Assembly (NCBI RefSeq): GCF_000014785.1
Contig: NC_008340.1
Coordinates: 30,001-62,000 of the forward strand
Length of the DNA stretch: 32,000 nt
Source: Alkalilimnicola ehrlichii MLHE-1
Lineage (GTDB): Bacteria > Pseudomonadota > Gammaproteobacteria > Nitrococcales > Halorhodospiraceae
Direction: 5' to 3'
Shown here: positions 3,968 through 18,725 of the stretch, piece after piece
How the letters are laid out: every line of letters starts with the position of its first letter
Numbering within the stretch: the stretch's first letter is position 1
Translations under genes and position numbers: made by a program
Notes under the pieces: generated by a model
Told to the model about the DNA's origin: nothing
What the model saw: the letters and a program-made list of their open reading frames with translations, nothing else
The model's database searches: none

Positions 3968-5407
3968 CTACGCCCGCTCCCGCCCCAGGCCGGTGATGGT
4001 TGCCATCGCAGCCCCGGCGACCATCCATGCCGGGGAGCCCGTCTCCCTCGCCCCGTGATTGGCGCACAGGCGAGCCAACCATAGCGCCAGGGTGGCCCAG
4101 CCGCTGTCGATCACTTGCCGGCCCAGGGCCCGCTCCGCGGTGCTGTCACCCAGCAGGCCGCGATTGGCGCAGGCGTTGGTCAGTGCCATTCCGGCCATCA
4201 GCAAAGGCGGGGCCTCCGCACCCTCCTCCAGCCAGTGGCGTAAGGCCGGGTGGGTGGGCTTATCGGCGCCAATGGATGCGGCCACGGCACTGCCCTCGGT
4301 TCTGTCCAGGACTGCCAGCAGGGCCCGCGCCCGGGCCCCGGGGTCGCGCGACAGTGCGCCGGGTCGTACCACCGTGAACCGTTGGGGGGCGGCCAGCAGC
4401 AGGCGGCGAAGGTTTTTCCGGTAGAGGGTCAGCAGCGCCCGCGAGCGGCTGTGCTCCCGGGCCTGCCAGGGGGCGTCCCGCACGGGCGCACAGCCCTGGA
4501 GGCATTGCGCACGGCTTTGGACAGCGCCCTGGAGCAAGAAAGGGTGGCGTCGCCAGGCCCGGTGGCACTGCACATGGTGATCGTCGCGCTGGAGCTCGAG
4601 CGCCGTCCCGATCGTGCGGGAGCCCTGGGTCAGGAGGACCAGTAAGGAGAAGGCGAGGCTGTGCCGCCCGTCCGCCTCCCGGCAGAGCGCCGGCAGCAGA
4701 TAGCCGGCCAGGGCCTCCCAGCTGGTCGGCTCCGGTCCACCTGCCACCCGGCGCAGGGCGCGGATGGCGGCCCGGGTTCTCTCGGGCAGGGCCCGGTAGA
4801 GGGGATGGGCCTGCAACGCCTTCAGGTCCAGCACGGTCTGGGGAGCGGGCCGGTCCCCACCGGGGTGGGCGGATGGGAGGCCGCTGCCTCCGCCGCCAGC
4901 GGGCCGCTGGAGGCGCCCGGCCAGTGCGTCCAGCAGCCGTGCCAGCGCCGGCTGGAAGTTAAAGGGGGCCAGGCCCAGCAGGCCGCTGCGATCCCGCAGC
5001 CGGCGATAGAGCCAGCGGCGGCCCATCGGGTCGCGGGCCAGGGTGGCCGCAATCAGCGCGCAGTAGTCGAGCAGCGCCCGGCACTGGCGCACATCGGTGA
5101 CATCCAGCCCCAGCAGACCCGGCTCGGCGGGCAGACCGTCCAGGGCCTTTATCAGTGCCGCAACGCTGCTCTCCCCCGCGCCGTCGGGCCGCGTCCGGGC
5201 CTGCCCGCCGGTGGTGCTCCAGCGGGCAGGCGCCCCGCCGCCCGGCGGTGGGGGGTGAAGCCGGTGCAGGTGCTCGTTGACGGCGGCCAGCGGTCCGGTC
5301 GTGGCATCGTGCAAGGGCTCAGAGAGAAGCGAGGGTGCGGGGGTGCCCCGCGGCGCGGCCGCAGCGGCCGGGCGGACCGGGGAGGGGTTGAGCGTCGGAT
5401 CATCCAT
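3968..5407 (-). CDS. Hypothetical protein, Pro/Ala-rich N-terminus, no recognisable domain
   Basis: The long minus-strand ORF has strong GC3 bias typical of real genes here. ATG at 5407 (MDDPTLNPSP...) is preceded by GGAGG. The open frame extends to 5467. I recognised no family motif. Confidence 0.6.
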   Translation of the reverse strand: MDDPTLNPSPVRPAAAAAPRGTPAPSLLSEPLHDATTGPLAAVNEHLHRLHPPPPGGGAPARWSTTGGQARTRPDGAGESSVAALIKALDGLPAEPGLLGLDVTDVRQCRALLDYCALIAATLARDPMGRRWLYRRLRDRSGLLGLAPFNFQPALARLLDALAGRLQRPAGGGGSGLPSAHPGGDRPAPQTVLDLKALQAHPLYRALPERTRAAIRALRRVAGGPEPTSWEALAGYLLPALCREADGRHSLAFSLLVLLTQGSRTIGTALELQRDDHHVQCHRAWRRHPFLLQGAVQSRAQCLQGCAPVRDAPWQAREHSRSRALLTLYRKNLRRLLLAAPQRFTVVRPGALSRDPGARARALLAVLDRTEGSAVAASIGADKPTHPALRHWLEEGAEAPPLLMAGMALTNACANRGLLGDSTAERALGRQVIDSGWATLALWLARLCANHGARETGSPAWMVAGAAMATITGLGRERA

Positions 5408-5511
5408 GATCACGCCTCCGGGTGGATGCTGGGTAGGGTTAGCACGTCGCGTCGTCCTTGACAGCACTAATCCTAGGGTGTGCCCCGGACGCGGTCAACC
5501 GCGCTGCCCTA

Positions 5512-6552
5512 TCAGGGGCAGGGGTTGGGGTTGCCGGCGTGGACGGCGTCGATGGCCTCCAGCAGCTCATCGTCCAGGGTCAGGTCCATGCTGTCGATGT
5601 TGGTCTCCAGCTGGTTCAGATCGGTGGCACCGATGACGGTGCTGGTCACGAAGGGGCGTGAGGTGGCCCAGGCCAGGGCCATCTGTGCCGGATCCAGGCC
5701 AAAGCGGTGGGCCAGGGCCACATAATCGGCGGTCGCCTGCACCCCGCGCTGCCCGGTGTAGCGCTGGAACTGTTCGAACAGCGACAGACGGGCCCCCTCG
5801 GGCCAGCGGCCGTCCAGGTACTTGCCGCTGAGCACCCCGAAGGCCAGTGGCGAGTACGCCATCAGCCCCACACCCTCGCGGTGGGAGACCTCGGCGAGAC
5901 CCACCTCGTAGCTGCGGTTGAGCAGGTTGTAGGGGTTCTGGACACTGACCACGCGCGGCAGATCCTGCTGCTCGGCCAACCACAGGCAGCGCATCACCCC
6001 CCAGGCGGTCTCGTTGGACAGCCCGATGTGGCGGATCTTGCCCGCCTCCACCAGGTCATAAAGCGCCTCCAGGGTGGCGCGAAGCTGCGGGATGGGGTCC
6101 GGCTCCCGCGGATCGGGCTGGTAGCCCAGCTTGCCGAAATAGTTGGTCTTCCGCTCCGGCCAGTGCAGTTGGTAGAGGTCGATATAGTCGGTCTGCAACC
6201 GTTGCAGGGAGCCCTCCACCGCCTCCACCAGGTGGGCGTGGGTGTAGCGGGTCCTCCCCTCACGTACCGTCTCCAGGCCCGGCCCCGCGATCTTGGTGGC
6301 CAGCACCACGTCCTCGCGGCGCCGGCGCCGCTTCAGCCAGCTGCCGATATAGCGCTCGGTGCGGCCGCCGGTCTCGCTTTTGGCCGGCACCGGGTACATC
6401 TCGGCGGTGTCGATGAAGTTGATCCCCCGGGCGAGGGCCTGGTCCAGTTGCTCATGGGCCTCGGCCTCGGTGTTCTGCTCGCCGAAGGTCATGGTGCCCA
6501 GGCAGAGGGCGCTGACCTCGATATCGGTATGACCCAGTTTGCGGTACTCCAT
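5512..6552 (-). CDS. tas: NADP(H)-dependent aldo-keto reductase, Tas-like
   Basis: MEYRKLGHTDIEVSALCLGTMTFGEQNTEAEAHEQLDQALARGINFIDTAEMYPVP closely parallels the E. coli Tas N-terminus. Length 346 aa. Confidence 0.85.
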   Translation of the reverse strand: MEYRKLGHTDIEVSALCLGTMTFGEQNTEAEAHEQLDQALARGINFIDTAEMYPVPAKSETGGRTERYIGSWLKRRRRREDVVLATKIAGPGLETVREGRTRYTHAHLVEAVEGSLQRLQTDYIDLYQLHWPERKTNYFGKLGYQPDPREPDPIPQLRATLEALYDLVEAGKIRHIGLSNETAWGVMRCLWLAEQQDLPRVVSVQNPYNLLNRSYEVGLAEVSHREGVGLMAYSPLAFGVLSGKYLDGRWPEGARLSLFEQFQRYTGQRGVQATADYVALAHRFGLDPAQMALAWATSRPFVTSTVIGATDLNQLETNIDSMDLTLDDELLEAIDAVHAGNPNPCP

Positions 6553-8794: not shown

Positions 8795-9163
8795 GTGATT
8801 GAAGGTATCGTTGCGATACTTGCGGGGTTGCTGCTGATTACACCCATCATTGGTAGGGGGTCGGCTGGGGCCAAGGTCGTTGGCAAGCTTACCCCTTTCG
8901 AGGCCGTGATCGGTGTTGTCGCTCTGATAGTCGGTGTGCTTAACGTTATGAGTGTCACGGGGCTGGTGCTAATTGTGGCTGGCCTCCTATTAGCGGCCAG
9001 CGCGCTTGCGAAGATCCCCGCCATTGGTAGTCACCTCGCGCGTGCAGGCAAGGCTCTCAAACCGTTCCGGGTCGTAATTGGTGTGGTTGTGTTGGTGATC
9101 GGCGTGTTGGTTTTGCTTGGGATCGTCGGCGGGGGCCCGCCGCCGGGTCTCCGCACCGGCTGA
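8795..9163 (+). CDS. Small hydrophobic membrane protein with an internal duplication
   Basis: GTG start preceded by GGGGAGAG. 122 aa, about 4 predicted TM helices. The segments KLTPFEAVIGVVALIVGVLNV and ALKPFRVVIGVVVLVIGVLVL are repeated. Local GC is lower than in the flanks. Confidence 0.5.
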   Translation: MIEGIVAILAGLLLITPIIGRGSAGAKVVGKLTPFEAVIGVVALIVGVLNVMSVTGLVLIVAGLLLAASALAKIPAIGSHLARAGKALKPFRVVIGVVVLVIGVLVLLGIVGGGPPPGLRTG

Positions 9164-9195
9164 TGCTGTCCGTGCGCCAACCCTCCCTGGTGTTC

Positions 9196-9785
9196 CGCTC
9201 CAATGCCTTGGAACATCTCGTGCAGGTCGACGGTGGAACGCTCGCCGATGCCAGCGAAGTTCTCGTCCAGCCAGCGTGTCGCGGTGTCGCGGCCCATGTC
9301 ACGCAGCTTGGTGAGAAACGCCCATTCGACGTTCATACACGACGAGGCGCTCAGCGGCTTCAGCTCCCGCCTGGTTTTCGATGATATGCACGCGCACCTA
9401 AGGGTGGTCGTCTGTCGAAAGCTTGCCCTGGCGGATCAAGCGATCGACGAAGTCTATCGAGCCAAGTTCCCTTAGCAGGCTGCCGTTGAAGCTGATCTCG
9501 TTCATCCGGTGCTCAATCTCCTGCGGCGTCCTTGGTGTGCCCTTGCGCTTGATTGGATTGATCTGGATCACCACGACATCGTCGGTGTCGGTCGCGCCAT
9601 GAAAGGGGAACAGAGACGGATTGCCCATGTAGCCACCATCCCAGTACGGCACACCATCGATCTCAATGGCCTGATATGGACAGCCGGCCGTCCTCGAGAA
9701 TGCGGTCCAGCACCGCCCAGGTGAACGCACCATGCGCGCCACCGCCCTGCAGGGCAAGATTCACGGCTTTCAGATTGGTTGTCAT
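9196..9785 (-). pseudogene. Patatin-like phospholipase pseudogene (internal deletion of the GxSxG region plus a frameshift)
   Basis: ATG at 9785 is preceded by AGGAG and gives MTTNLKAVNLALQGGGAHGAFTWAVLDRILEDGRLSI (oxyanion-hole GGG motif), then a stop. A different frame continues with YQAIEIDGVPYWDGGYMGNPSLFP (catalytic DGG motif) ...INPIKR...NEISFN. A third frame carries the DUF3734-like tail NVEWAFLTKLRDMGRDTATRWLDENFAGIGERSTVDL. The lower boundary is approximate. Confidence 0.65.
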
Positions 9786-9861
9786 CGGATTTTAGCTCCT
9801 AAACCAGAGCCCGAGTCTCGCATCATGACGCTTAAGCTACTGACTCTACGCCACAATAGGG

Positions 9862-9880
9862 CGACCCCAGCCTGGGGTCG
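9862..9880 (-). terminator. GC-rich hairpin, possible end of the minus-strand effector/immunity operon
   Basis: CGACCCCAG-C-CTGGGGTCG is a perfect 9-nt inverted repeat, 24 nt beyond the last minus-strand ORF stop. No clear U-tract follows, so an intrinsic-terminator call is weak. Confidence 0.25.
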
Positions 9881-9903
9881 GTACGCTCGCGAACATACCG
9901 AGA

Positions 9904-10152
9904 TCACACACGAATACAGCGCTCTTCCCGCTGCCAGTTCGGCATTGAGGCGTGGACTTCGGGCTGGGCAACTCGATGGCGATTTCCGAGCAGAAAGCCC
10001 AGGCCGGCAGCCGAACCCAACAGCGCCGGGGACGTCATCCGGTCATGGATTCGGTGGCGCAGCATGGCGCCCTGCGCGCCCATCGATCGCTGGCGCTCGG
10101 CGCCATTGATGCGTGCTGCCAGCGATTCGGAGTGGGGTGCGTTGCGGATCAT
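9904..10152 (-). CDS. Possible small single-TM protein (82 aa from the internal ATG); may be non-functional
   Basis: MIRNAPHSESLAARINGAERQRS...MTSPALLGSAAGLGFLLGN has one hydrophobic helix. The annotated 129-aa ORF (to 10293) starts inside the effector-derived 95-bp repeat and is therefore chimeric. Confidence 0.3.
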   Translation of the reverse strand: MIRNAPHSESLAARINGAERQRSMGAQGAMLRHRIHDRMTSPALLGSAAGLGFLLGNRHRVAQPEVHASMPNWQREERCIRV

Positions 10153-10230
10153 GATGACGTGTCCGTTTCGGGGGTCAGACTGCGCACGGTGGCGGGGAAC
10201 TGCAGATTTGGGCGTTGCTGGCGGATCGCC

Positions 10231-10325
10231 CAGCCACTCAGGAATATTGCCGTCGCCTGCATTGGCAACGTGAGGCGCCAGGTTCAACGACATCAGGCCT
10301 TCGATGGTTCGTGCGGAGAAGAGCG
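10231..10325. repeat. 95-bp copy (93/95 identical) of an internal segment of the effector gene
   Basis: I aligned cagccactcaggaatattgccgtcgcctgcattggcaa[c/t]gtgaggcgccaggttcaacgacatcaggccttcgatggttcgtgc[g/c]gagaagagcg by eye against 15702-15796. The flanks are unrelated. Confidence 0.9.
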
Positions 10326-11309
10326 ACGCTGGGTGTGGGGATCGAGGGTTTGCGGGGCGTCGGGGTGCAGGCCCTGGTCGCGCTCAATGTCGTAGAGTCG
10401 GGAGGTGGGGCCGTCGGCGCGGCAGCGTTCGCGCACGAGCGGGTGCCACTGGCTGCGGGCGGCGCGGCGCTGGGCCAACTGCCAGACAAAGTCGCGCAGG
10501 ACGAGGGCGGGCAGCATGACGGCCTGGAAGGCGTTGGTGAACCACATGCGGTCGCGGGTCATGATGCCCATGTCGACCAACTCCCGGTGGAGTTCGATGT
10601 CGATCTTGCCCGTGCGATTGCGCTGGGCGAAGCGTTTGCGCACCGCCTGGCGGGTGGATTCGGGGGTGTTTCGGCCCTGCTCGTCGAACCAGGGGCCGTT
10701 TTCCATGTAACAGCGTAGGTACTCCCAGAGCATGGCCTGGGTCTGGGCGGTGTGGCCCATGGGAAGGTTGAGATTGACGGCGATGACCTCGTCGGGCTGC
10801 TGGAAGCGCTGGAGGAGGATCTGCAGGGGGGTGAGCCGGTTGACGCCGGCATGGTGGGTGACCTGGCGGGTTTCCTGCAGCCATGCGACGGCCTCGTCCC
10901 AGGGGGTGTGGTAGAGCTTTTTGCCGTCCTGGAAGTAGACCTCGCGGGTGCGGCGATTGAAGCGCAGGGGCAGGGCCGCGGGCCAGAAGACCTCGAGCAG
11001 GAAGAAGACCAGGGTGACGCCGGCCATGGCTCCATTGACCTGCAAAGCGAATACCGCTCTCTCTCCCCCGTGGAAAAAGTTGGGTGACATCACTACTAGA
11101 CCCATCAGCGTTCCCCATCCCCAAAACCCGGTCCACAGGCCCCTTGAGCTTCCGGTGGTGATATCGAGGTAGTGCTCGGTCTGGTCCTGGACGTCGCCGG
11201 CCTGCATGGGCTGGGCGGCCGCGCGCCGGTCGGGGCGCAGGGTGATGACCTCGTCGGCGAGCCCGATATTGCGGGAGAGATCGGCGAAGAACCGGCGCAG
11301 GTGGTGCAT
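10293..11309 (-). CDS. Polytopic membrane protein, paralog of 11926-13257; candidate (orphan) T6SS immunity protein
   Basis: 338 aa. Shares PLRFNRRTREVYF, TPWDEAVAW and MLWEYLRCYMENGP with PIRLHRQRREVAF, VPWEDVIAV and AQWEYIRRFMEEGP of the 444-aa protein. Its ATG is 2 nt after the stop of the preceding ORF. Its last ~10 codons lie inside the 95-bp effector-derived repeat. Confidence 0.7.
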   Translation of the reverse strand: MHHLRRFFADLSRNIGLADEVITLRPDRRAAAQPMQAGDVQDQTEHYLDITTGSSRGLWTGFWGWGTLMGLVVMSPNFFHGGERAVFALQVNGAMAGVTLVFFLLEVFWPAALPLRFNRRTREVYFQDGKKLYHTPWDEAVAWLQETRQVTHHAGVNRLTPLQILLQRFQQPDEVIAVNLNLPMGHTAQTQAMLWEYLRCYMENGPWFDEQGRNTPESTRQAVRKRFAQRNRTGKIDIELHRELVDMGIMTRDRMWFTNAFQAVMLPALVLRDFVWQLAQRRAARSQWHPLVRERCRADGPTSRLYDIERDQGLHPDAPQTLDPHTQRRSSPHEPSKA

Positions 11310-11311
11310 GG

Positions 11312-11827
11312 CTAGTTGATCCGGATGGGAGGCAGGGTGAGATCGGGGAACGGGCGATAGTACAGGGTGCCGGAGAGGGAGCTCAGCCGGTCGCCGTCCC
11401 GGGTGTCGTGGTAGATGAGTCGGTAGACGGGGCCGTCGGGCGCCTCCGCCCCACCGATGTCGAGGTCGAGATCCTTTTCGGTGATGGTCCGGCTGCGTTC
11501 GTCATGCCGGACCAGCCCGGTGCGCCAGCGCTCGGTGGCCTCCAGAGTGAACATGCCCGGGAAGGGCGTGGCGCCGGGGAAGGTGACCAGCAGGACACGG
11601 TAGTGGTGGACATCGCCGGAGCGGGGGTTACGGGCCTGGCGGGCCTCCAGCCGGATGCGCGGCTCGTAGAGCAGCCGGTAGAGGTGGCCGAGTTCCTCGT
11701 CCAGGTCGCCGGCCCAGTCGGCCAGCCGCGGGAGTCGCCCGCGAACGCCGCGTAGGCCGTGCCACGCAGGACGCCATGGCCCGGGGTTGACCGCCCCATC
11801 GATCATCATCCATGAGCCTTGGTCCAT
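11312..11827 (-). CDS. 171-aa soluble protein of unknown function; possibly derived from the C-terminal domain of a displaced VasX-like effector
   Basis: ATG at 11827 is preceded by AAGGAG (the open frame extends to 11851). It is tightly coupled to the downstream membrane protein (TAG-CC-ATG). By-eye similarity to the last ~175 aa of the 1099-aa effector is described in the findings. Confidence 0.55.
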   Translation of the reverse strand: MDQGSWMMIDGAVNPGPWRPAWHGLRGVRGRLPRLADWAGDLDEELGHLYRLLYEPRIRLEARQARNPRSGDVHHYRVLLVTFPGATPFPGMFTLEATERWRTGLVRHDERSRTITEKDLDLDIGGAEAPDGPVYRLIYHDTRDGDRLSSLSGTLYYRPFPDLTLPPIRIN

Positions 11828-11925
11828 GGCCTTACTCCTTTGCCGCCGCATACCTTTTACAGGCCAGCTCTGGGCTGGGCAGCCTGGAGCAGCGTAACGG
11901 TTGGTGTCTGGCTCATGGCGCCGGC

Positions 11926-13257
11926 TCAGGCCGCGCTGGCCGCAAATGGCAGTGTGCGATAAGCCGTACCTGGGGAGGGCTCCACCTCGACCCCAAAGCG
12001 TTTCTCGATATTGCCCATCTCGATGAACTTCTCGCCGCGCTGGTAGGCCTGCCGCAGCTTCTCGCCGAGTTCAGTGAGTTCGCGCGAAGGTCGGGCCCAC
12101 TGGTCCCGGGGAAGGGGCCTGGACCATCCCGCCAGCCAGCCCTTGGGCACCGCCTTGGGCAGCACATGCTTCATGCGGTACTCGGTGTACCAGTGGGCGA
12201 AGCGTGCATGATTCCACCACTGCTCGCGCCGAAAGCGCCGCCAGCGGGCCTTGTCGTGGGTGCGTTCGCACTCGGCCTTTTCCCGGGCCACGTAGGCGTC
12301 GTACCACTCGAGGCCCCACTCCCGGGCGGAAGAGGTGATGGCCTCGGGCCCCTCCTCCATGAAGCGGCGGATGTACTCCCACTGGGCCAGCGCGCCCGGG
12401 AGGCCGCCGACCCCGACGATGATGCCGGCCCCGGGCAGGGTATAGCCGGGTCGTTCCGGATCGGGCGGCATCAGAGCGAAGTTCCAGCCGAAGCCGGTGA
12501 CGGCCCCGGCGCTGAGGCTGGGGTTGAACCCGCAGACCGCGATCACGTCCTCCCAGGGCACCAACACGGTCTGGCGCTGTTGGCCGACGAGCTTGCGGCA
12601 GAAGTCATGGAAATAGGGATAGAGAGGCAGGAAGGCCAAGGAGGCGATGTGGATCAGCAGTACCTTGAGAGGGAAGACCGTATCTGGATTCGCCATCCAT
12701 TCGAACACGTCCACAAAAACCATAATTCCGGTCAGCGAGGCAATGACACCCGAAGAAGCCATCAACCACATGTTGGTTGGGTCGGGCAGCCAGAAGCGCC
12801 GCCCGGGGGCATCCACGACGAAGGCCACCTCCCGGCGTTGGCGATGGAGGCGGATGGGGGGGATGCGTCTCAGTACGACATCGGGATAGAGAATGCCGGC
12901 AAAAAGAGGAAACAATATAACCGCGTAAATGCTTCCCAGCCCCCCTGCAACCAACTCCAAGGGCAGTGAGCCCTTGTACACCGCACTCAGGGAGAAAAGG
13001 AGCCCCAGTCCCGAAATTAGCGTCAGGCCGACACTAAAGATATGCCCCGTAATCAGGACGCTATCGAGGCTGGCAGCCTGGCGCAGGTCCATCGTGACCT
13101 CGTCGCGGCGAACGTCGATGTGGGCCACGTCCACGCCATGTTCGCTGTCGGTGGGCAGCGGCAGAGGGCTGAGACAGTACTGCTCGCCGCCGGCGCGGCT
13201 TTCCCGTTCGCCGGCGCGCATAGGGGGTAACGTATCGTCGATGGTTGATCTGGGCAT
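11926..13257 (-). CDS. Polytopic membrane protein immediately downstream of the effector; candidate cognate immunity protein
   Basis: ATG at 13257 (MPRSTIDD...) is 20 nt after the effector stop. The ORF-track start at 13368 would overlap the effector by 90 nt. Several TM helices are predicted. It is a paralog of 10293-11309 with an extra TM-hairpin insertion. Its position corresponds to tsiV2 after vasX in V. cholerae. Confidence 0.7.
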   Translation of the reverse strand: MPRSTIDDTLPPMRAGERESRAGGEQYCLSPLPLPTDSEHGVDVAHIDVRRDEVTMDLRQAASLDSVLITGHIFSVGLTLISGLGLLFSLSAVYKGSLPLELVAGGLGSIYAVILFPLFAGILYPDVVLRRIPPIRLHRQRREVAFVVDAPGRRFWLPDPTNMWLMASSGVIASLTGIMVFVDVFEWMANPDTVFPLKVLLIHIASLAFLPLYPYFHDFCRKLVGQQRQTVLVPWEDVIAVCGFNPSLSAGAVTGFGWNFALMPPDPERPGYTLPGAGIIVGVGGLPGALAQWEYIRRFMEEGPEAITSSAREWGLEWYDAYVAREKAECERTHDKARWRRFRREQWWNHARFAHWYTEYRMKHVLPKAVPKGWLAGWSRPLPRDQWARPSRELTELGEKLRQAYQRGEKFIEMGNIEKRFGVEVEPSPGTAYRTLPFAASAA

Positions 13258-13277: not shown

Positions 13278-16200
13278 TCACGGCCAGGGCGTCAGGGGCA
13301 TGTCCGGCCAGTTGCCCACTTGGTACCGCGTGAGGAAACGATCGCCGAGGGCGGAGATCTCCCTCCACTCATCGGAGAGCGATGTGCCGCGGCGATGCAA
13401 CTGGAAGACCCGGGTGGTGGATGCTTCGGGGCCCTTCGTGCGGATGACGAGGCGGAACTCGTGGCATTCGGCCAATGTTTCGGGATCGAAATGGTAGTGC
13501 AGGGCATAGCTCGAGCCCTGGTTTTCGAGCTCGGCATGTTCGAGAAAGTCTCGGGTCATTTCCTTGAGGCGAGGGGTGACGCCCCAGAGGCCCAGCGCGA
13601 GGTTTTCCGCATTGGGGGCGTCAAGCCCGGGCAAGCCAATGCGTATGGCGAGGTCGGTGCCTGCCGGCCCGGGCCCCGGGCCGCCATGGGGCTCGGCCTG
13701 CCCCTGCCGTTCCACCGTGAGATCGGTATCGCCAAGTCGGGCCAGTTCCCGCTCGTGGGCCTCGCGATCCCAGCCCTGATCTTCTCGCCCCCAGTGACTG
13801 CGCTGGCACCAGCGCTGCACAGGGCTCAACGAGAAGCGATTGGCCAGCACCTCGCCGATGATCAGCAGGGCGGTGCCAACCGCCACCACCCAGCCGGCGG
13901 GGCCGGCGAATTTCAGCAGCAGCAGTCGCCAGGCGACTGCGGGCTTGCCCAGCATCCTGCCAAGCGCGCTCATGCCGCCGATTAAGAAGCCACCACCGGC
14001 GACTCCGGCCGCACCTGTAAAGGCAACCTGTAAGGCCAGTCGCTCCGCCTGGGTTTCTGATCCCTGCATTCGTTTGTACTGCTTGTAGGTTTCTAAGAGA
14101 CCTGCAAAGCCACCCAGTAGGGCCACGGCCCCCATCGCCCCATTGGCAACCCTTGCCCAGCGCTCCAGTTGCGCGGGGCTTCCGGCGGCGGCGCGGGTCT
14201 CGGCCAAGGCCACCTGCTGAAAGCCCCGCCCCTGGTAGAGGTTGCGATGGCGGGCGTCGATGATCATTTCTCGTATTGCCATGATGCTCGCTGCCGCCCC
14301 TGTCGCGTGAGAGCCCGTCGCGAAGGCGTGCTCCATGAGGCGTTCTTCGCCCCAGGCATCAAGCGTATTGCGCAGGGCCACGCCGGTCATGATCATACCC
14401 AGCATCGACAGGCTCCCATTAACCAGCACCCCCAGGCTCCGACTCGCCGACAGCTCGCCCTGTTCGTCGCGCACCAGGGTGTTCAAGGTGTCGTTCAGGG
14501 TCGCGGCTGGTTGACGGGCAACGGCCCGGTCGGCGGCACGCTCGGCCAGGGCGGCACGGGTGGCGGCCAGGCTCAGGCCGCCGACCTGGACGGCGTGGCC
14601 ATTGGCCTTGTCGACGGGGAAGCTGTGTTCGGCCAGGGCGTCGAATGCCTCGCCCAGCAGGCGCCTGTGCCGGTTGATGTCGGCCTGGCTTTCGCGGATT
14701 TTGCGGGCATTGAACCGGTCGGCGGCCCGGCGATGCGCCTGGCTGGTGCCGCGCCTGGACGCCCGTGCCAACTCGACCTGGCGCTCCTGGTAGAGCTGCT
14801 CGAGCCTGCGCTCAAGGGTTGCCAGGTTGGCCACGGCCGAGTCCGCCTGGTCCAGTGCTTGCTGGATGCGGCCCAGTACGGAGCGGTCGGGGATGGCCCA
14901 GCCGAGCTCGAGCAGCCCCAGACGTTCGGCAAACATCAGCCGTTGCCCATCGGGCAAGCGCGAAGCCAGGGTAGTGATGCGCTGCCCCAGGTCGACATCC
15001 TGTACGTCATCGAGCAACGTCCCGAGCACCGCCTGCCCCAGCAGCTTCTCCTTGATTTGCACTTCGCCCGCGATGGCGGTTCGGGCTTCGTCGGAGAGGC
15101 CCTCGACGCTGCGAAAGCGCAGCCCGGTCTGATGTTCAACCTCGCCCCGCCACTGCTGGTAGCGGCTGAGTGCGCCCTGGGCGCCCATCAGTGCGGACGC
15201 CTGGGTGAGCGCTTTCTGGAGGCCAGTGTTTTGGGAAAGGAATCCCTCCACGAAGGACGCGGTGGGGACGTAATGCATCAGGTGTGCCGGTACCGGGTCG
15301 TCGCCGGCGTAGTAGCTCGACAGGAAGTCCTCCTGCCCGCAGGCCAGCAGGGTCTCGACGGCCTGCTTTTCCAGCAGGCAGGTCAGCAGGATGTGATGCT
15401 CCTCTTCGCGGTCGAGCAGCAGGGCCTGGGTGTGCCAGGTGGGCAGTATGGCGGCCAGGTCGGCCCCGATACGGTGATACTCGCTCTGCCACTGCGCCTG
15501 CATCGGGGTGGCATAGGCCAGGAAGTCTTCCATCGCCTGCCGGCGGATCACGTCGACGATGCCGTTGGGCGCCAGCGCCCCGCCAATGAAGCCCGGGTGG
15601 CCGCCTGAACGGGCAGTGACCTGCTCTATGGCTTCGCGATGCTGCGAATAGAGCTCGGCGAGCGACTCCAGGTCGTTACGCTCGGCATAACTGGCTTCGC
15701 TCAGCCACTCAGGAATATTGCCGTCGCCTGCATTGGCAATGTGAGGCGCCAGGTTCAACGACATCAGGCCTTCGATGGTTCGTGCCGAGAAGAGCGCCAC
15801 CGCGTTCTCGTCGACCCACTGGCCCTGTTGTTCCGCCAGGCAGGCCCACGCCTGGGCGAGGTCCTTGATACGTCCGGCGATATCGTCCACTACCAGGCAG
15901 GCGCTGTCTTGCTGAAAGCCCCCCTGGATAGCCGCCTTGATCTCGGCGGCGCGCGCACGCTGCCACTCGGCGTGTTCGCCTTCCGCGTCGCACCAGGCGT
16001 AGCTGCCCGGGTCGAGCGGGTCGCCGTCCTGCTCGGTCGGGGCGCTGGGGGTCGCGCGGTGTTCGCCATGGTCGTCCGCCAGGACGTCGGCCAGGGCATC
16101 GGGATCGAGCAGGTGAGCGGTACCCGCCCCCGGACAGTAGGCGCCAACGTTGACCCGCGTCATCACCTGATCGCGGAAGGCAGGTTTAAGCAGCATCGAT

Positions 16201-16577
16201 TGGTGCACGGCCGTCAGCGCCAAGGGACTGAACAGCACCTGGATGCTGCCCTCGCGCTCGACGATGATCGCATCGCCGCTGCCATCGGGTTTGACCTCGA
16301 AGACCTGCAGCTCATCGGGCGTTGAGCTGTGTACCAGGTAGAGCCAGCCTTCCCGTACCGGCCGTACGCCACAGCGACGGAAACTGCCGTCATGAACGGG
16401 CCGGAAGCCCGGCGTGCCCGAGGCCCGATCCGCCTCGGGCGCCTCGACCAGGGCATACCGCACCGGGACCAGCTGCAGCTCACCGCGCGTAAGAGGGCAG
16501 AGCCCCTGCTCTTGGCCCGGGTCGTTATCGTTCCGGCTCTCCGCGACGCGGTTGGCGGCTTCCATGTCGGTGCTCAT
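13278..16577 (-). CDS. T6SS effector, VasX / BTH_I2691-like (N-terminal loading region, coiled-coil middle, C-terminal cluster of TM helices, about 175-aa terminal domain)
   Basis: 1099 aa, directly after vgrG and the DUF4123 adaptor with a 4-nt ATGA overlap. The N-terminus GLCPLTRGELQLVPVRYALVE resembles the VasX N-terminal region. Glycine-rich hydrophobic helices near the C-terminus include LSMLGMIMTGVAL, GAVALLGGFAGLL, FTGAAGVAGGGFLIGGMSALG and WVVAVGTALLIIGEVL. Confidence 0.8.
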   Translation of the reverse strand: MSTDMEAANRVAESRNDNDPGQEQGLCPLTRGELQLVPVRYALVEAPEADRASGTPGFRPVHDGSFRRCGVRPVREGWLYLVHSSTPDELQVFEVKPDGSGDAIIVEREGSIQVLFSPLALTAVHQSMLLKPAFRDQVMTRVNVGAYCPGAGTAHLLDPDALADVLADDHGEHRATPSAPTEQDGDPLDPGSYAWCDAEGEHAEWQRARAAEIKAAIQGGFQQDSACLVVDDIAGRIKDLAQAWACLAEQQGQWVDENAVALFSARTIEGLMSLNLAPHIANAGDGNIPEWLSEASYAERNDLESLAELYSQHREAIEQVTARSGGHPGFIGGALAPNGIVDVIRRQAMEDFLAYATPMQAQWQSEYHRIGADLAAILPTWHTQALLLDREEEHHILLTCLLEKQAVETLLACGQEDFLSSYYAGDDPVPAHLMHYVPTASFVEGFLSQNTGLQKALTQASALMGAQGALSRYQQWRGEVEHQTGLRFRSVEGLSDEARTAIAGEVQIKEKLLGQAVLGTLLDDVQDVDLGQRITTLASRLPDGQRLMFAERLGLLELGWAIPDRSVLGRIQQALDQADSAVANLATLERRLEQLYQERQVELARASRRGTSQAHRRAADRFNARKIRESQADINRHRRLLGEAFDALAEHSFPVDKANGHAVQVGGLSLAATRAALAERAADRAVARQPAATLNDTLNTLVRDEQGELSASRSLGVLVNGSLSMLGMIMTGVALRNTLDAWGEERLMEHAFATGSHATGAAASIMAIREMIIDARHRNLYQGRGFQQVALAETRAAAGSPAQLERWARVANGAMGAVALLGGFAGLLETYKQYKRMQGSETQAERLALQVAFTGAAGVAGGGFLIGGMSALGRMLGKPAVAWRLLLLKFAGPAGWVVAVGTALLIIGEVLANRFSLSPVQRWCQRSHWGREDQGWDREAHERELARLGDTDLTVERQGQAEPHGGPGPGPAGTDLAIRIGLPGLDAPNAENLALGLWGVTPRLKEMTRDFLEHAELENQGSSYALHYHFDPETLAECHEFRLVIRTKGPEASTTRVFQLHRRGTSLSDEWREISALGDRFLTRYQVGNWPDMPLTPWP
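15702..15796. repeat. Master copy, inside the effector CDS, of the 95-bp repeat found at 10231-10325
   Basis: Encodes effector residues ~261-292 (LFSARTIEGLMSLNLAPHIANAGDGNIPEWL). 93/95 identical to the distal copy. Confidence 0.9.
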
Positions 16578-17473
16578 GCCTTGCTCTCCCTGCTCGCTAG
16601 CCGCCGGGCCTCGGTGGCGGCGGCCTTGAGTCGCTCCATGGGGGTGCCGCTGGTCTGGGTGACGTGCCGAGCCAGATCCGGCATGCGCTGTTCATCCAGG
16701 GCCGCCGGACCATAGGCCCCCAGGATGTTGGCCATGTAGTAGTGGGCGCGCCGACCGGTGAAGCCCAGCTCCCGTGTGGTATCGATGACCCGCCGAGCGG
16801 CCATGCCAGCCGTCCCGCATTCGCTGATCAGCGGGCCGTGGGCGAAGAATGCCTGGAGGTGCTGTGCCAGCTCTCCGGCGAAACGCTGCCAGGCGATACG
16901 ACTCAGCGATTCGAGATGTGCTGGCTGCAGCCTGAAGCGCTTCCGGTGCCGTACCGGCTCACCCTGGGTGTTGGTCAGATGGCGCCAGGTGATGCCGTCG
17001 TCTTCGGCTATCGGCAACCATAGCGCGCCGATCACCCCCAGGAGCGGGCTTTGCGAGGGCTCCGGCTCCGCCTCGAGCAGGCAGTGCACGACTTGGGCCG
17101 AGGCCAGCCGTAGTATCTTTTCGCCTTCCAGGGGGTGCTCGACAAACAACAGCCAGCGCAGATGCGCCGCGAGTTCCTCCAGCGAGGCATCGCTGGCCAT
17201 GAGCCAGCCCCAGCTCTCGACCGCGCCCTGTTCCAGGAACCTCTCCCAGACCAGGCTGCCCGGCTCCAGAGCCACCAGGCATGGCGAGAGCTTTCGACAC
17301 GCTTCCAGCGGCGTGTGCAGGTAGAGCGGCTCATAGACGGGTGTATCGAGGTGCTCGTAGAGCCAACGTTCCAGAGGTTCGAGCGCTATGCCGTCGAGCA
17401 GCAGGTAGTGCTTCCCGTCACCGAGGGCAGCCGCCGACGGTGGCGCGCTATTGGGGAGTGCCCCCGTGGTCAT
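16574..17473 (-). CDS. DUF4123 T6SS effector adaptor/chaperone (VasW/Tap/Tec-like)
   Basis: [14 protein letters not shown]...[12 protein letters not shown]...[23 protein letters not shown] fits the DUF4123 pattern. Start and stop overlap the vgrG stop and the effector start by 4 nt each. Confidence 0.8.
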
Positions 17474-18725
17474 GCCGATCCCTCGTCATCGCCAGTGGGT
17501 GTGCAGGGCTGTGTCAAAGCCATCGCCTGGCGCAGGGCTGCCTCCTGCCGAATCGGCTCAATACGCGGCACGTTAGGGGCCGGCTCCACCTCCCTTTGCG
17601 ATGCCAACTCCGCCTCCCGCGGCACCTCCGGTGCGAGGGCCGCCTGGCCCGAGCCCGATCCAGGGCTGCCCCCGGAGTTCATGCGGATGCCGGGGCCGCT
17701 GAGGGTGATGCCCGAGGGATCGACCTTGATGAAACTGCCGCCCGCCTGGAGGGTGATCTCGGCACCGGCGTCGATGACCGCCTTGTGCCCCGACTTGACG
17801 TGCAGTTCCCGGCCGCATTCGCTCAGCCAGGCCTCACCGGCTTTGAGATGCAGGGTGCCCTCCACGCTGAGATGCTGATCCCCACCGGTGCGCTCGCGCC
17901 GCTCGCCCTGCACGGTGAGGTGCTCGTCGCCGTGGATCTCCGCGAGCCGGTCGCCGTGGACGCCCAGGTGGCTGTGGCGGCCGATGGTCTCGGAGCGGTC
18001 GTTGCGGGTGTGCAGGTCGAGATCGCGCTGGGCGTGCAGGTGGATGCGCTCGGCCTCGCGGGCATCCTCGAAGTGCAGTTCGTTGTAGCCCTCACCGTCC
18101 TGGCTGCGGCTGCGCAGCACGCTGCGGGTCTTGTGCGCGGGCAGCGGATAGGGCGGGGTGTTGTGGCCATCGTAGACCCGGCCGGTGATCACCGGCTGAT
18201 CCGGGTCGCCGGCCAGGAAGTCGACGATCACCGCATGGCCCACCCGGGGCAGGAACAGCCCGCCGTAGCCGGGCCCGGCCCAGGGCTGGGCGACGCGCAG
18301 CCAGGCGCTGGCGTGCTCGTCATCGGCGGCGTAGCGGTCCCAGGGGAAACGGACCTTGACCCGGCCGTGCTCATCGCAATGGATCGCCTCCCCCTCGGGG
18401 CCCACCACCCGGGCGATCTGCGGGCCCTCCATCCGCGGGCCGGCGTCCGGGTCGTGGGGCGGGCGCCGGTGCGGCCGCGCTGGAACTCGGTGACGATGCC
18501 GTGGACCCGGCGGGTGACCGCACCCCCCTGATGGATCACCAGCGCCAGGCCCTGCTCAAGCCAGTCGTCGGGGGCGATATCGGGCGAGGGGTGGACCAGG
18601 TCCAGGGTCAGCGTGAAGGGCCGGGAGAGGTGCTCATCCAGCAAGAACCCGGTGACCCGGGGCAGGTCGGCCTCCGCCGCGCCGGGGCGCGAGAGGGCGA
18701 GGTACAGTCCGTTGTCCGTAGGCAT
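17470..18725 (-). pseudogene. vgrG: vgrG with a large internal deletion (most of the gp27-like domain missing) and a frameshift
   Basis: The N-terminal ORF (from 18725) gives about 85 VgrG-like residues ending [16 protein letters not shown] different frame then starts with [32 protein letters not shown], a motif that normally sits near residue 390, and continues through the gp5-like repeats to the [10 protein letters not shown] tail. The locus spans only 1256 nt, versus about 2 kb for an intact vgrG. Confidence 0.75.

Follow-up and report, generated by a model that had tools for sequence, protein, structure and literature searches.

The 100 bp at positions 10226-10325 (minus strand) of a 32-kb stretch of Alkalilimnicola ehrlichii MLHE-1 DNA, called the window here at its whole length, are very probably the 5′ stub of a 5′-truncated orphan vasX_A gene, and as such a functionless relic, left behind when a cassette of a T6SS effector-immunity array was displaced or duplicated. 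The finding is a new example of a known phenomenon, the orphan effector-immunity array, and involves no new mechanism or class of element. Its one unusual feature is the reciprocal, cyclically permuted arrangement of the cassettes at two vgrG islands of the same genome.

Extent and reading frames of the repeat

Pairwise alignment of 10231-10325 with 15702-15796 gave 93 of 95 identical positions in the same orientation, as an earlier note on this DNA had described. Blastn of the window against itself, a comparison which that note proposed, reproduced the repeat and widened it to 100 bp: 10226-10325 matches 15697-15796 at 97 of 100 positions (E = 4.8e-42). In a repeat search this pair, spaced by 5471 bp, was the sole long direct repeat of the window, and the next-best repeat family reached 47 nt at 72%. 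The flanks of the two copies are non-homologous on either side, based on pairwise and three-way alignment.

In the effector frame, the segment at 15697-15796 (minus strand) lies within the intact vasX_A gene and encodes codons 261-294 (..ALFSARTIEGLMSLNLAPHIANAGDGNIPEWL..), where residues ~261-292 had been estimated before. The distal copy is used in another frame. It supplies the final 10 codons and the TGA stop of a 338-aa ORF (10293-11309, minus strand) and the opening 21-22 codons, beginning at Met272 of vasX_A, of a 129-aa ORF (9904-10293, minus strand), both as first reported. The upstream edge of the stub, at 10325/10326, is a junction with the immunity gene immB, which we call J1. The downstream edge, at 10226/10225, would be the product of a later deletion.

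The 129-aa ORF (annotated as ABI55395.1), described as chimeric in the earlier note, lacks the coding signature: GC3 over the whole ORF is 0.68, compared to 0.79-0.86 in the adjoining genes. It runs from the stub into unrelated DNA, it has no Pfam or NCBIfam match, and the members of its cluster come from the same strain only. The ORF is spurious.

An assembly chimera or mis-join in a repeat-rich region, against which the earlier note had cautioned, has next to no probability as a source of the repeat. Short-read contigs do end within it: Logan assembly contigs from two runs of the same strain (L005 and L006) have their position 1 at window 10260, inside the 100-bp repeat, as is expected where a repeat exceeds the k-mer. 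Against a mis-join, all five proteins encoded here, among them the 338-aa protein with its repeat-derived tail and the 129-aa ORF, have accessions in both the ABI553xx and the XQT863xx series. We take the first series to be the original deposit of the genome and the second to come from a later re-sequencing, so that the proteins across or next to the junctions are present in both. The same two short-read assemblies, which are independent of each other (SRR32708590 and SRR9436228), are 100% identical to the window across the junction between stub and flank. Finally, an identical J1 is present at another locus of the genome (see below).

Organization of the window cassette

The effector encoded in the window is 100% identical to the 'toxin VasX' of A. 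ehrlichii MLHE-1. The T6SS core genes tssB, C, E, F, G, J, K and L run on the plus strand from about 19 kb. On the minus strand we found a cassette consisting of a vgrG pseudogene, a DUF4123 adaptor gene, vasX_A and immA, followed by a decayed second cassette (pseudo-DUF4123_B, pseudo-vasX_B and an intact DUF6708 immunity gene, immB) and then by the distal copy of the repeat.

The vgrG pseudogene (17470-18725, minus strand) carries an 833-bp frameshifting internal deletion that leaves two ORFs corresponding to VgrG model positions 13-79 and 358-512. Comparison with the vgrG of the second island by blastn places this deletion at an 8-nt microhomology, GGCGCCCG. It removes most of the gp27-like domain, and compared with the vgrG of Billgrantia about 855 bp are absent as well. 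Because vgrG is broken, delivery of VasX_A from the window cassette is doubtful. Next comes DUF4123_A, the adaptor/chaperone gene for vasX_A (16574-17473, minus strand; Pfam DUF4123, 86.9 bits with a cut-off of 25.8 bits).

The vasX_A gene (13278-16577, minus strand; ABI55399.1) encodes a predicted membrane-disrupting T6SS effector of 1099 aa, similar to VasX and BTH_I2691. Its VasX_N match scores 81 bits (cut-off 27 bits) and is best over residues 27-100, upstream of the repeat segment. The C-terminal part resembles the BTH_I2691 family below the threshold: the NCBIfam model BTH_I2691_fam scores 93.7 bits, under its cut-off of 150, and is matched at model positions 502-849 only. Of the features of a VasX-like cassette, the VasX_N domain, the DUF4123 adaptor gene upstream and the vgrG upstream are present, the last as a pseudogene. 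VasX_A lacks 47 residues near or after residue 333 (window ~15570) that are present in all of its orthologs (1146-1151 aa).

Directly behind vasX_A lies immA (11926-13257, minus strand; ABI55398.1), which encodes a 443-aa membrane protein with weak similarity to DUF6708. Synteny makes it the presumed cognate immunity gene, as it is found directly 3′ of the vasX_A orthologs in Thioalkalivibrio ALE10 and Billgrantia kenyensis, and it is 85% identical to the gene behind the truncated effector of the second island. It is followed directly by a second junction region, J2 (11773-11892, minus strand), made of a vgrG 3′-end remnant and the first 17 codons of DUF4123_B.

The earlier note spoke of two immunity candidates between the copies of the repeat. 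The next ORF, of 179 aa (11312-11851, minus strand; annotated as 171 aa, ABI55397.1), was rejected as an immunity gene, since blastn pieces and alignment resolve it into DUF4123_B codons 1-17, vasX_B residues 250-260 (an 11-residue match) and vasX_B residues 733-868 (97% identity). This mosaic pseudogene is a repeatedly deleted relic of a whole B cassette. The actual immunity genes would be the ORFs of 443 and 338 aa.

The latter, immB (10293-11309, minus strand; ABI55396.1), is a predicted DUF6708 immunity gene (PF20455, 44.4 bits with a cut-off of 27) whose last 10 codons and stop derive from the stub. It is 90% identical to Mlg_0841, the gene that directly follows an intact vasX_B at the second island. 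The window copy is an orphan, its effector vasX_B having decayed in this island. The replaced tail is probably tolerated by the protein, given that the DUF6708 core ends at GLH and that the C-termini of homologs vary beyond this motif.

Scans of the surroundings of the stub gave no promoter, terminator or Rfam match. Further along, window ~9150-9783 (minus strand) resembles by eye a frameshifted gene for a patatin-like phospholipase that has suffered internal deletions (MTTNLKAVNLALQGGGAHGAF..., ...DGVPYWDGGYMGNP...), a reading unconfirmed by Pfam and PDB sequence searches.

The same junction is found at a second vgrG island

A homology search with the effector recovered a second A. ehrlichii protein (P0024) of 669 aa, of which a 685-aa version is Mlg_0842. 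It begins with MPEW..., precisely where the repeated segment ends, and shares 93% identity with residues 288-650 of VasX_A and 89% with residues 768-1099. The gene belongs to a second vgrG island of the same genome (Mlg_0840-0843; CP183314.1:1034052-1056061, hereafter L002), which has the order vgrG, DUF4123_B (173 aa), vasX_B (868 aa), immB (338 aa), a vasX_A fragment and immA′ (444 aa).

By blastn, window 11723-10226 is colinear with L002 8523-10020, a match that starts with the final 410 bp of vasX_B, covers immB completely and ends after the first 100 bp of the vasX_A fragment. Window 15796-14629 and 14210-11816 in turn correspond to L002 9921-11088 and 11078-13475. A three-way alignment of the stub, the intact vasX_A and L002 9921-10020 revealed that immB of L002 meets vasX_A codon 261 at the same nucleotide as in the window. 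Upstream of J1 the two islands have the immB sequence in common; after GGCGA the window diverges, while L002 carries on in vasX_A for about 2 kb beyond J1 as the orphan Mlg_0842, before its own immunity gene immA′.

J1 reads ...CACCCAG-CGT-CGCTCTTCTC... (full string CACCCAGCGTCGCTCTTCTCC) and joins immB, three codons short of its native stop, to vasX_A codon 261. The join is illegitimate and non-homologous, with 2-3 filler or ambiguous bases, and the filler is identical in both islands. The description of the repeat as a recombination scar thereby holds, in the sense of an illegitimate join between the 3′ end of immB and the middle of the effector gene. As J1 occurs at two loci, with the window version truncated, the apparent fusion of an effector segment onto an immunity gene is one junction. 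In the window the truncated effector homolog lies 5.47 kb downstream of the full-length vasX_A, in the same orientation and in the same vgrG cluster. No immA-related sequence lies beyond the stub in the window; a cognate immunity gene in this position is seen only at L002, where immA′ follows Mlg_0842.

At L002 the stop codon of immB and the Met272 codon of the orphan overlap (TGATG), which gives rise to the 685-aa ORF. Mlg_0842 also has a 418-bp deletion in its membrane-active, pore-forming region, at the 7-nt microhomology TGGCCGA (L002 11078-11088, window 14211-14628).

The stub is neither recent nor a crossover hotspot

The earlier note explained the repeat as a recent copying, in situ, of an effector segment onto the end of the immunity gene, and suggested that the segment may mark a boundary between a conserved loading region and a variable toxin part, which would be preferred for effector swapping. 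The high identity, the short tract and the unrelated flanks fit this explanation, as do the position of the segment downstream of the VasX_N match and the start of the L002 orphan at the same point. Nonetheless, the data below have already largely refuted it, and we consider it improbable.

As to age, the stub has the base of the Thioalkalivibrio ALE10 ortholog at all three mismatches between stub and effector, and the L002 orphan has the stub base at two of the three. With ancestral bases in the stub, it is the effector that has changed, and the stub is no newly made copy. Cassette DNA of the window and L002 is 97-98% identical outside one replaced patch, so the 97% of the stub is the general identity of paralogous cassettes and unremarkable. 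Together with the identical J1 at the second island, this leaves no ground for calling the event recent. The 47-aa deletion of VasX_A is also present in the L002 orphan, which indicates that the copies separated after the deletion arose.

As to a domain boundary, conservation over 19 VasX_A homologs is flat across residues 241-320 (0.60, 0.62, 0.63 and 0.55). VasX_A and VasX_B have no shared sequence at the repeat segment, with a weak VasX_N match at their N-termini only, making homologous swapping between the two types impossible at this site. The L002 orphan is no second, independent use of a hotspot either, as its junction is the same event, filler bases included.

Nor do related loci join at exactly this segment, as the earlier note had suggested looking for: the array of Thioalkalivibrio ALE10 breaks at about codon 1019, and that of a metagenome contig (L007) at the 3′ end of DUF4123_A. 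The sole candidate for an independent orphan at the same site was a homolog starting at Met272 (P0031); its contig (L008) carries a frameshifted full-length gene, and we rejected it. The stub marks neither a domain boundary nor a preferred crossover point.

Two islands are cyclic permutations of one unit

J2, like J1, is common to both islands. It joins immA to the vgrG 3′ end and DUF4123_B; the window remnant is 82.5% identical to L002 5745-5864, and the same remnant is found behind immA′ at L002 13399-13508. The deletions beyond J2 are nested and differ between the islands. In gene direction, the window reads A - immA - J2 - pseudoB - immB - J1 - A(stub), and L002 reads B - immB - J1 - A′ - immA′ - J2 - pseudoB - immB (17 nt). 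The two islands are hence cyclic permutations (A-B-A versus B-A-B) of one ~5.5-kb unit, [vasX_A(261-end) - immA - J2 - pseudoDUF4123_B/vasX_B - immB - J1], each comprising slightly more than one turn and each with a different intact front end.

That two identical illegitimate junctions formed twice is implausible, and each would therefore have arisen once and then spread by homologous recombination. One conceivable route, which we put forward tentatively and hold to be rather unlikely, is that units are excised as circles via their flanking direct repeats and re-integrate by homologous recombination in another vgrG island. Cyclically permuted islands are the footprint expected from such excision and re-integration. 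If true, this model would provide an integrase-free way of spreading T6SS cassettes and orphan immunity genes between the islands of one genome.

Related arrays in other genomes

The genomic context of homologs was drawn from the loci of P0024, P0005, P0134 and P0142. In a scan of genome contigs, the effector matched in Thioalkalivibrio sp. ALE10 only, and a codon-degenerate pattern for ARTIEGLM(S/T)LN(L/F)xPH found no match in the metagenome contig scan.

The metagenome contig mentioned above (L007, from JGI metagenome 3300000447) comes from a close relative and carries vgrG, DUF4123_B, vasX_B and a 330-aa immB with the native tail ..TQGPH*. It is this tail that places J1 three codons before the native stop. 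Behind the intact B cassette (4784-5634) come the opening 205 bp of another immB, joined to the final 80 bp of DUF4123_A, and then a vasX_A that is present from its start codon. The order B-to-A is thus the same as in L002 with a different junction, which makes this order older than J1 and J1 a derived deletion or join. Judging from this comparison, J1 is consistent with a deletion or an illegitimate join of ~1 kb.

Billgrantia kenyensis has a plain A cassette. In Thioalkalivibrio ALE10 the A cassette is followed by an orphan composed of vasX_A residues 1019-1100 and a second immA (immA2). On the contig concerned (L003, 4723-8027 and 8177-10129), the last 240 bp of vasX_A plus immA are tandemly duplicated, with 88% identity, and further on 279-bp direct repeats (96%) bracket a 464-aa minus-strand ORF, possibly a mobile element.

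Proposed origin and role of the stub

We propose that J1 was created once, by an illegitimate recombination that linked immB, short of its native stop by three codons, to codon 261 of vasX_A. J1 and J2 would each have a single origin, as when an incoming cassette takes the place of a resident one in homology-facilitated displacement. Both junctions may then have been spread by homologous recombination among the repeated cassettes, for which unequal crossover, gene conversion, or a circle that is excised and re-integrated would each suffice. Such a spread would explain the A-B-A order of the window as opposed to the B-A-B order of the other island.

In the window, the rest of the orphan would have been lost, from about 100 bp in, through a deletion of the microhomology type, of which these loci have three other documented cases. 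This deletion is inferred rather than seen, as the DNA to the right of the stub (10225-9784) has no recognisable homolog in blastn-short and tblastx searches of 9300-10225 against the window, L002 and L003. Identity between the window and L002 is patchy, with a 62% patch inside immB. Some parts have accordingly been replaced by other alleles, and simple descent fails in places.

As to consequences, the element of biological importance beside the stub is the intact orphan immB, which, as the family context suggests, would shield the cell from VasX_B, whether this toxin is fired by kin or from the other island. The stub itself would do no more than provide a 100-bp stretch of homology at which deletions, or recombination between the islands, could take place on rare occasions. 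As the earlier note had anticipated at about 5.5 kb, a RecA-type deletion between the two copies would take out 5471 bp.

The stub might instead be maintained as a functional recombination handle, either to switch or delete the expressed effector-immunity set or to exchange cassettes between vgrG islands, in the manner of orphan Rhs/CdiA modules. Direct repeats 5471 bp apart are able to recombine, the cyclic permutation of the islands requires homologous exchange at some time, and toxin switching driven by orphans is documented for Rhs of Salmonella, as cited in PMC5361080. With no toxin domain or immunity gene downstream of the stub, however, recombination here can only destroy vasX_A and delete immA and immB. 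The partner vgrG is already a pseudogene, and the L002 orphan has lost 418 bp of its pore-forming region.

The surrounding DNA is itself decaying, as seen in the microhomology deletions of vgrG (833 bp) and of the orphan (418 bp) and in the 47-aa loss in both vasX_A and the orphan. A maintained handle is for these reasons quite improbable, and we retain the reading of the stub as a decaying relic.

Comparison with known systems

Orphan toxin fragments are known from Rhs-CT and CdiA-CT systems, where 5′-truncated toxin fragments lie downstream of the full gene, share homology with it, can recombine with it and normally keep their immunity gene. Such orphan toxin-immunity modules are reportedly the subject of work by Jackson in 2009, Poole in 2011 and Koskiniemi in 2014. 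The boundary at which the orphans of Rhs and CdiA begin is a conserved motif (PxxxxDPxGL or VENN), and it has been reused many times.

The stub resembles these orphans in being a 5′-truncated toxin-gene fragment downstream of the full gene with shared homology. In contrast, it begins at an illegitimate join that happened only once, within a stretch of even conservation, and it comes without a toxin part and without an immunity gene. The mark of a switchable orphan of the Rhs/CdiA type, a reused domain boundary followed by an alternative toxin and its immunity gene, is absent here.

A further parallel is the T6SS of V. cholerae, for which Kirchberger et al. 2017 (PMC5361080) describe orphan immunity arrays that result from sequential effector displacement. 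In that model, a new effector-immunity module with a homologous anchor is joined illegitimately on the downstream side of that anchor, and the resident effector loses its 5′ part to it, while the old immunity gene, and sometimes the 3′ end of the old effector, is left downstream, at the 3′ end of the vgrG cluster (PMC5361080). The arrays described here likewise fit sequential displacement by homology-facilitated illegitimate recombination. They differ in that the window retains a 5′-proximal internal fragment of 100 bp rather than a 3′ end, and in that the same junction occurs at two islands of one genome with reciprocal relics (A-B-A versus B-A-B), which points to intragenomic homologous exchange rather than serial import alone. 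The host is also different, a soda-lake member of the Ectothiorhodospiraceae rather than a Vibrio.

In its gene content, with vgrG, a DUF4123 adaptor gene, a large VasX_N effector and a membrane immunity protein, the cassette is like the VasX/VasW/TsiV2 system of V. cholerae and the BTH_I2691 systems. DUF6708 proteins are annotated as the immunity partners of pore-forming effectors of the BTH_I2691 type and form long tandem arrays in Stenotrophomonas, for example Tse3/Tsi3a-j of Stenotrophomonas rhizophila (PMC13340143). The tandem multiplication of DUF6708 genes is shared with these systems. Unlike in them, the effector stays below the BTH_I2691 cut-off, immA is marginally DUF6708-like and the vgrG of the cassette is broken.

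These results correct how five genes of MLHE-1 are annotated, with ABI55395 being spurious, ABI55397 a mosaic pseudogene, vgrG a pseudogene, Mlg_0842 an orphan toxin fragment, and ABI55396 an orphan immunity gene with an effector-derived C-terminal tail. They also extend the orphan-array phenomenon known from Vibrio, Rhs and CdiA to the VasX-type pore-forming effectors of soda-lake Gammaproteobacteria. The junctions common to two islands provide a clean natural case in which two illegitimate joins can be separated from their later homologous spread, of use for modelling the evolution of T6SS effector and immunity repertoires.

Allele patches in immunity and effector genes

At the DNA level the immB paralogs of the two islands share 97-98% identity outside a patch of ~200 bp, the predicted membrane segment, where identity falls to 62-89%. 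The patch lies at window ~10900-11130 (residues ~60-100) and L002 ~9110-9330, and the window copy of it matches the metagenome contig L007 at 99%. Residues 98-235 of immA diverge in a similarly patchy way, and so does the pore-forming part of vasX_A in comparison with the orphan. This pattern suggests allele replacement or a co-diversification of toxin and immunity specificity.
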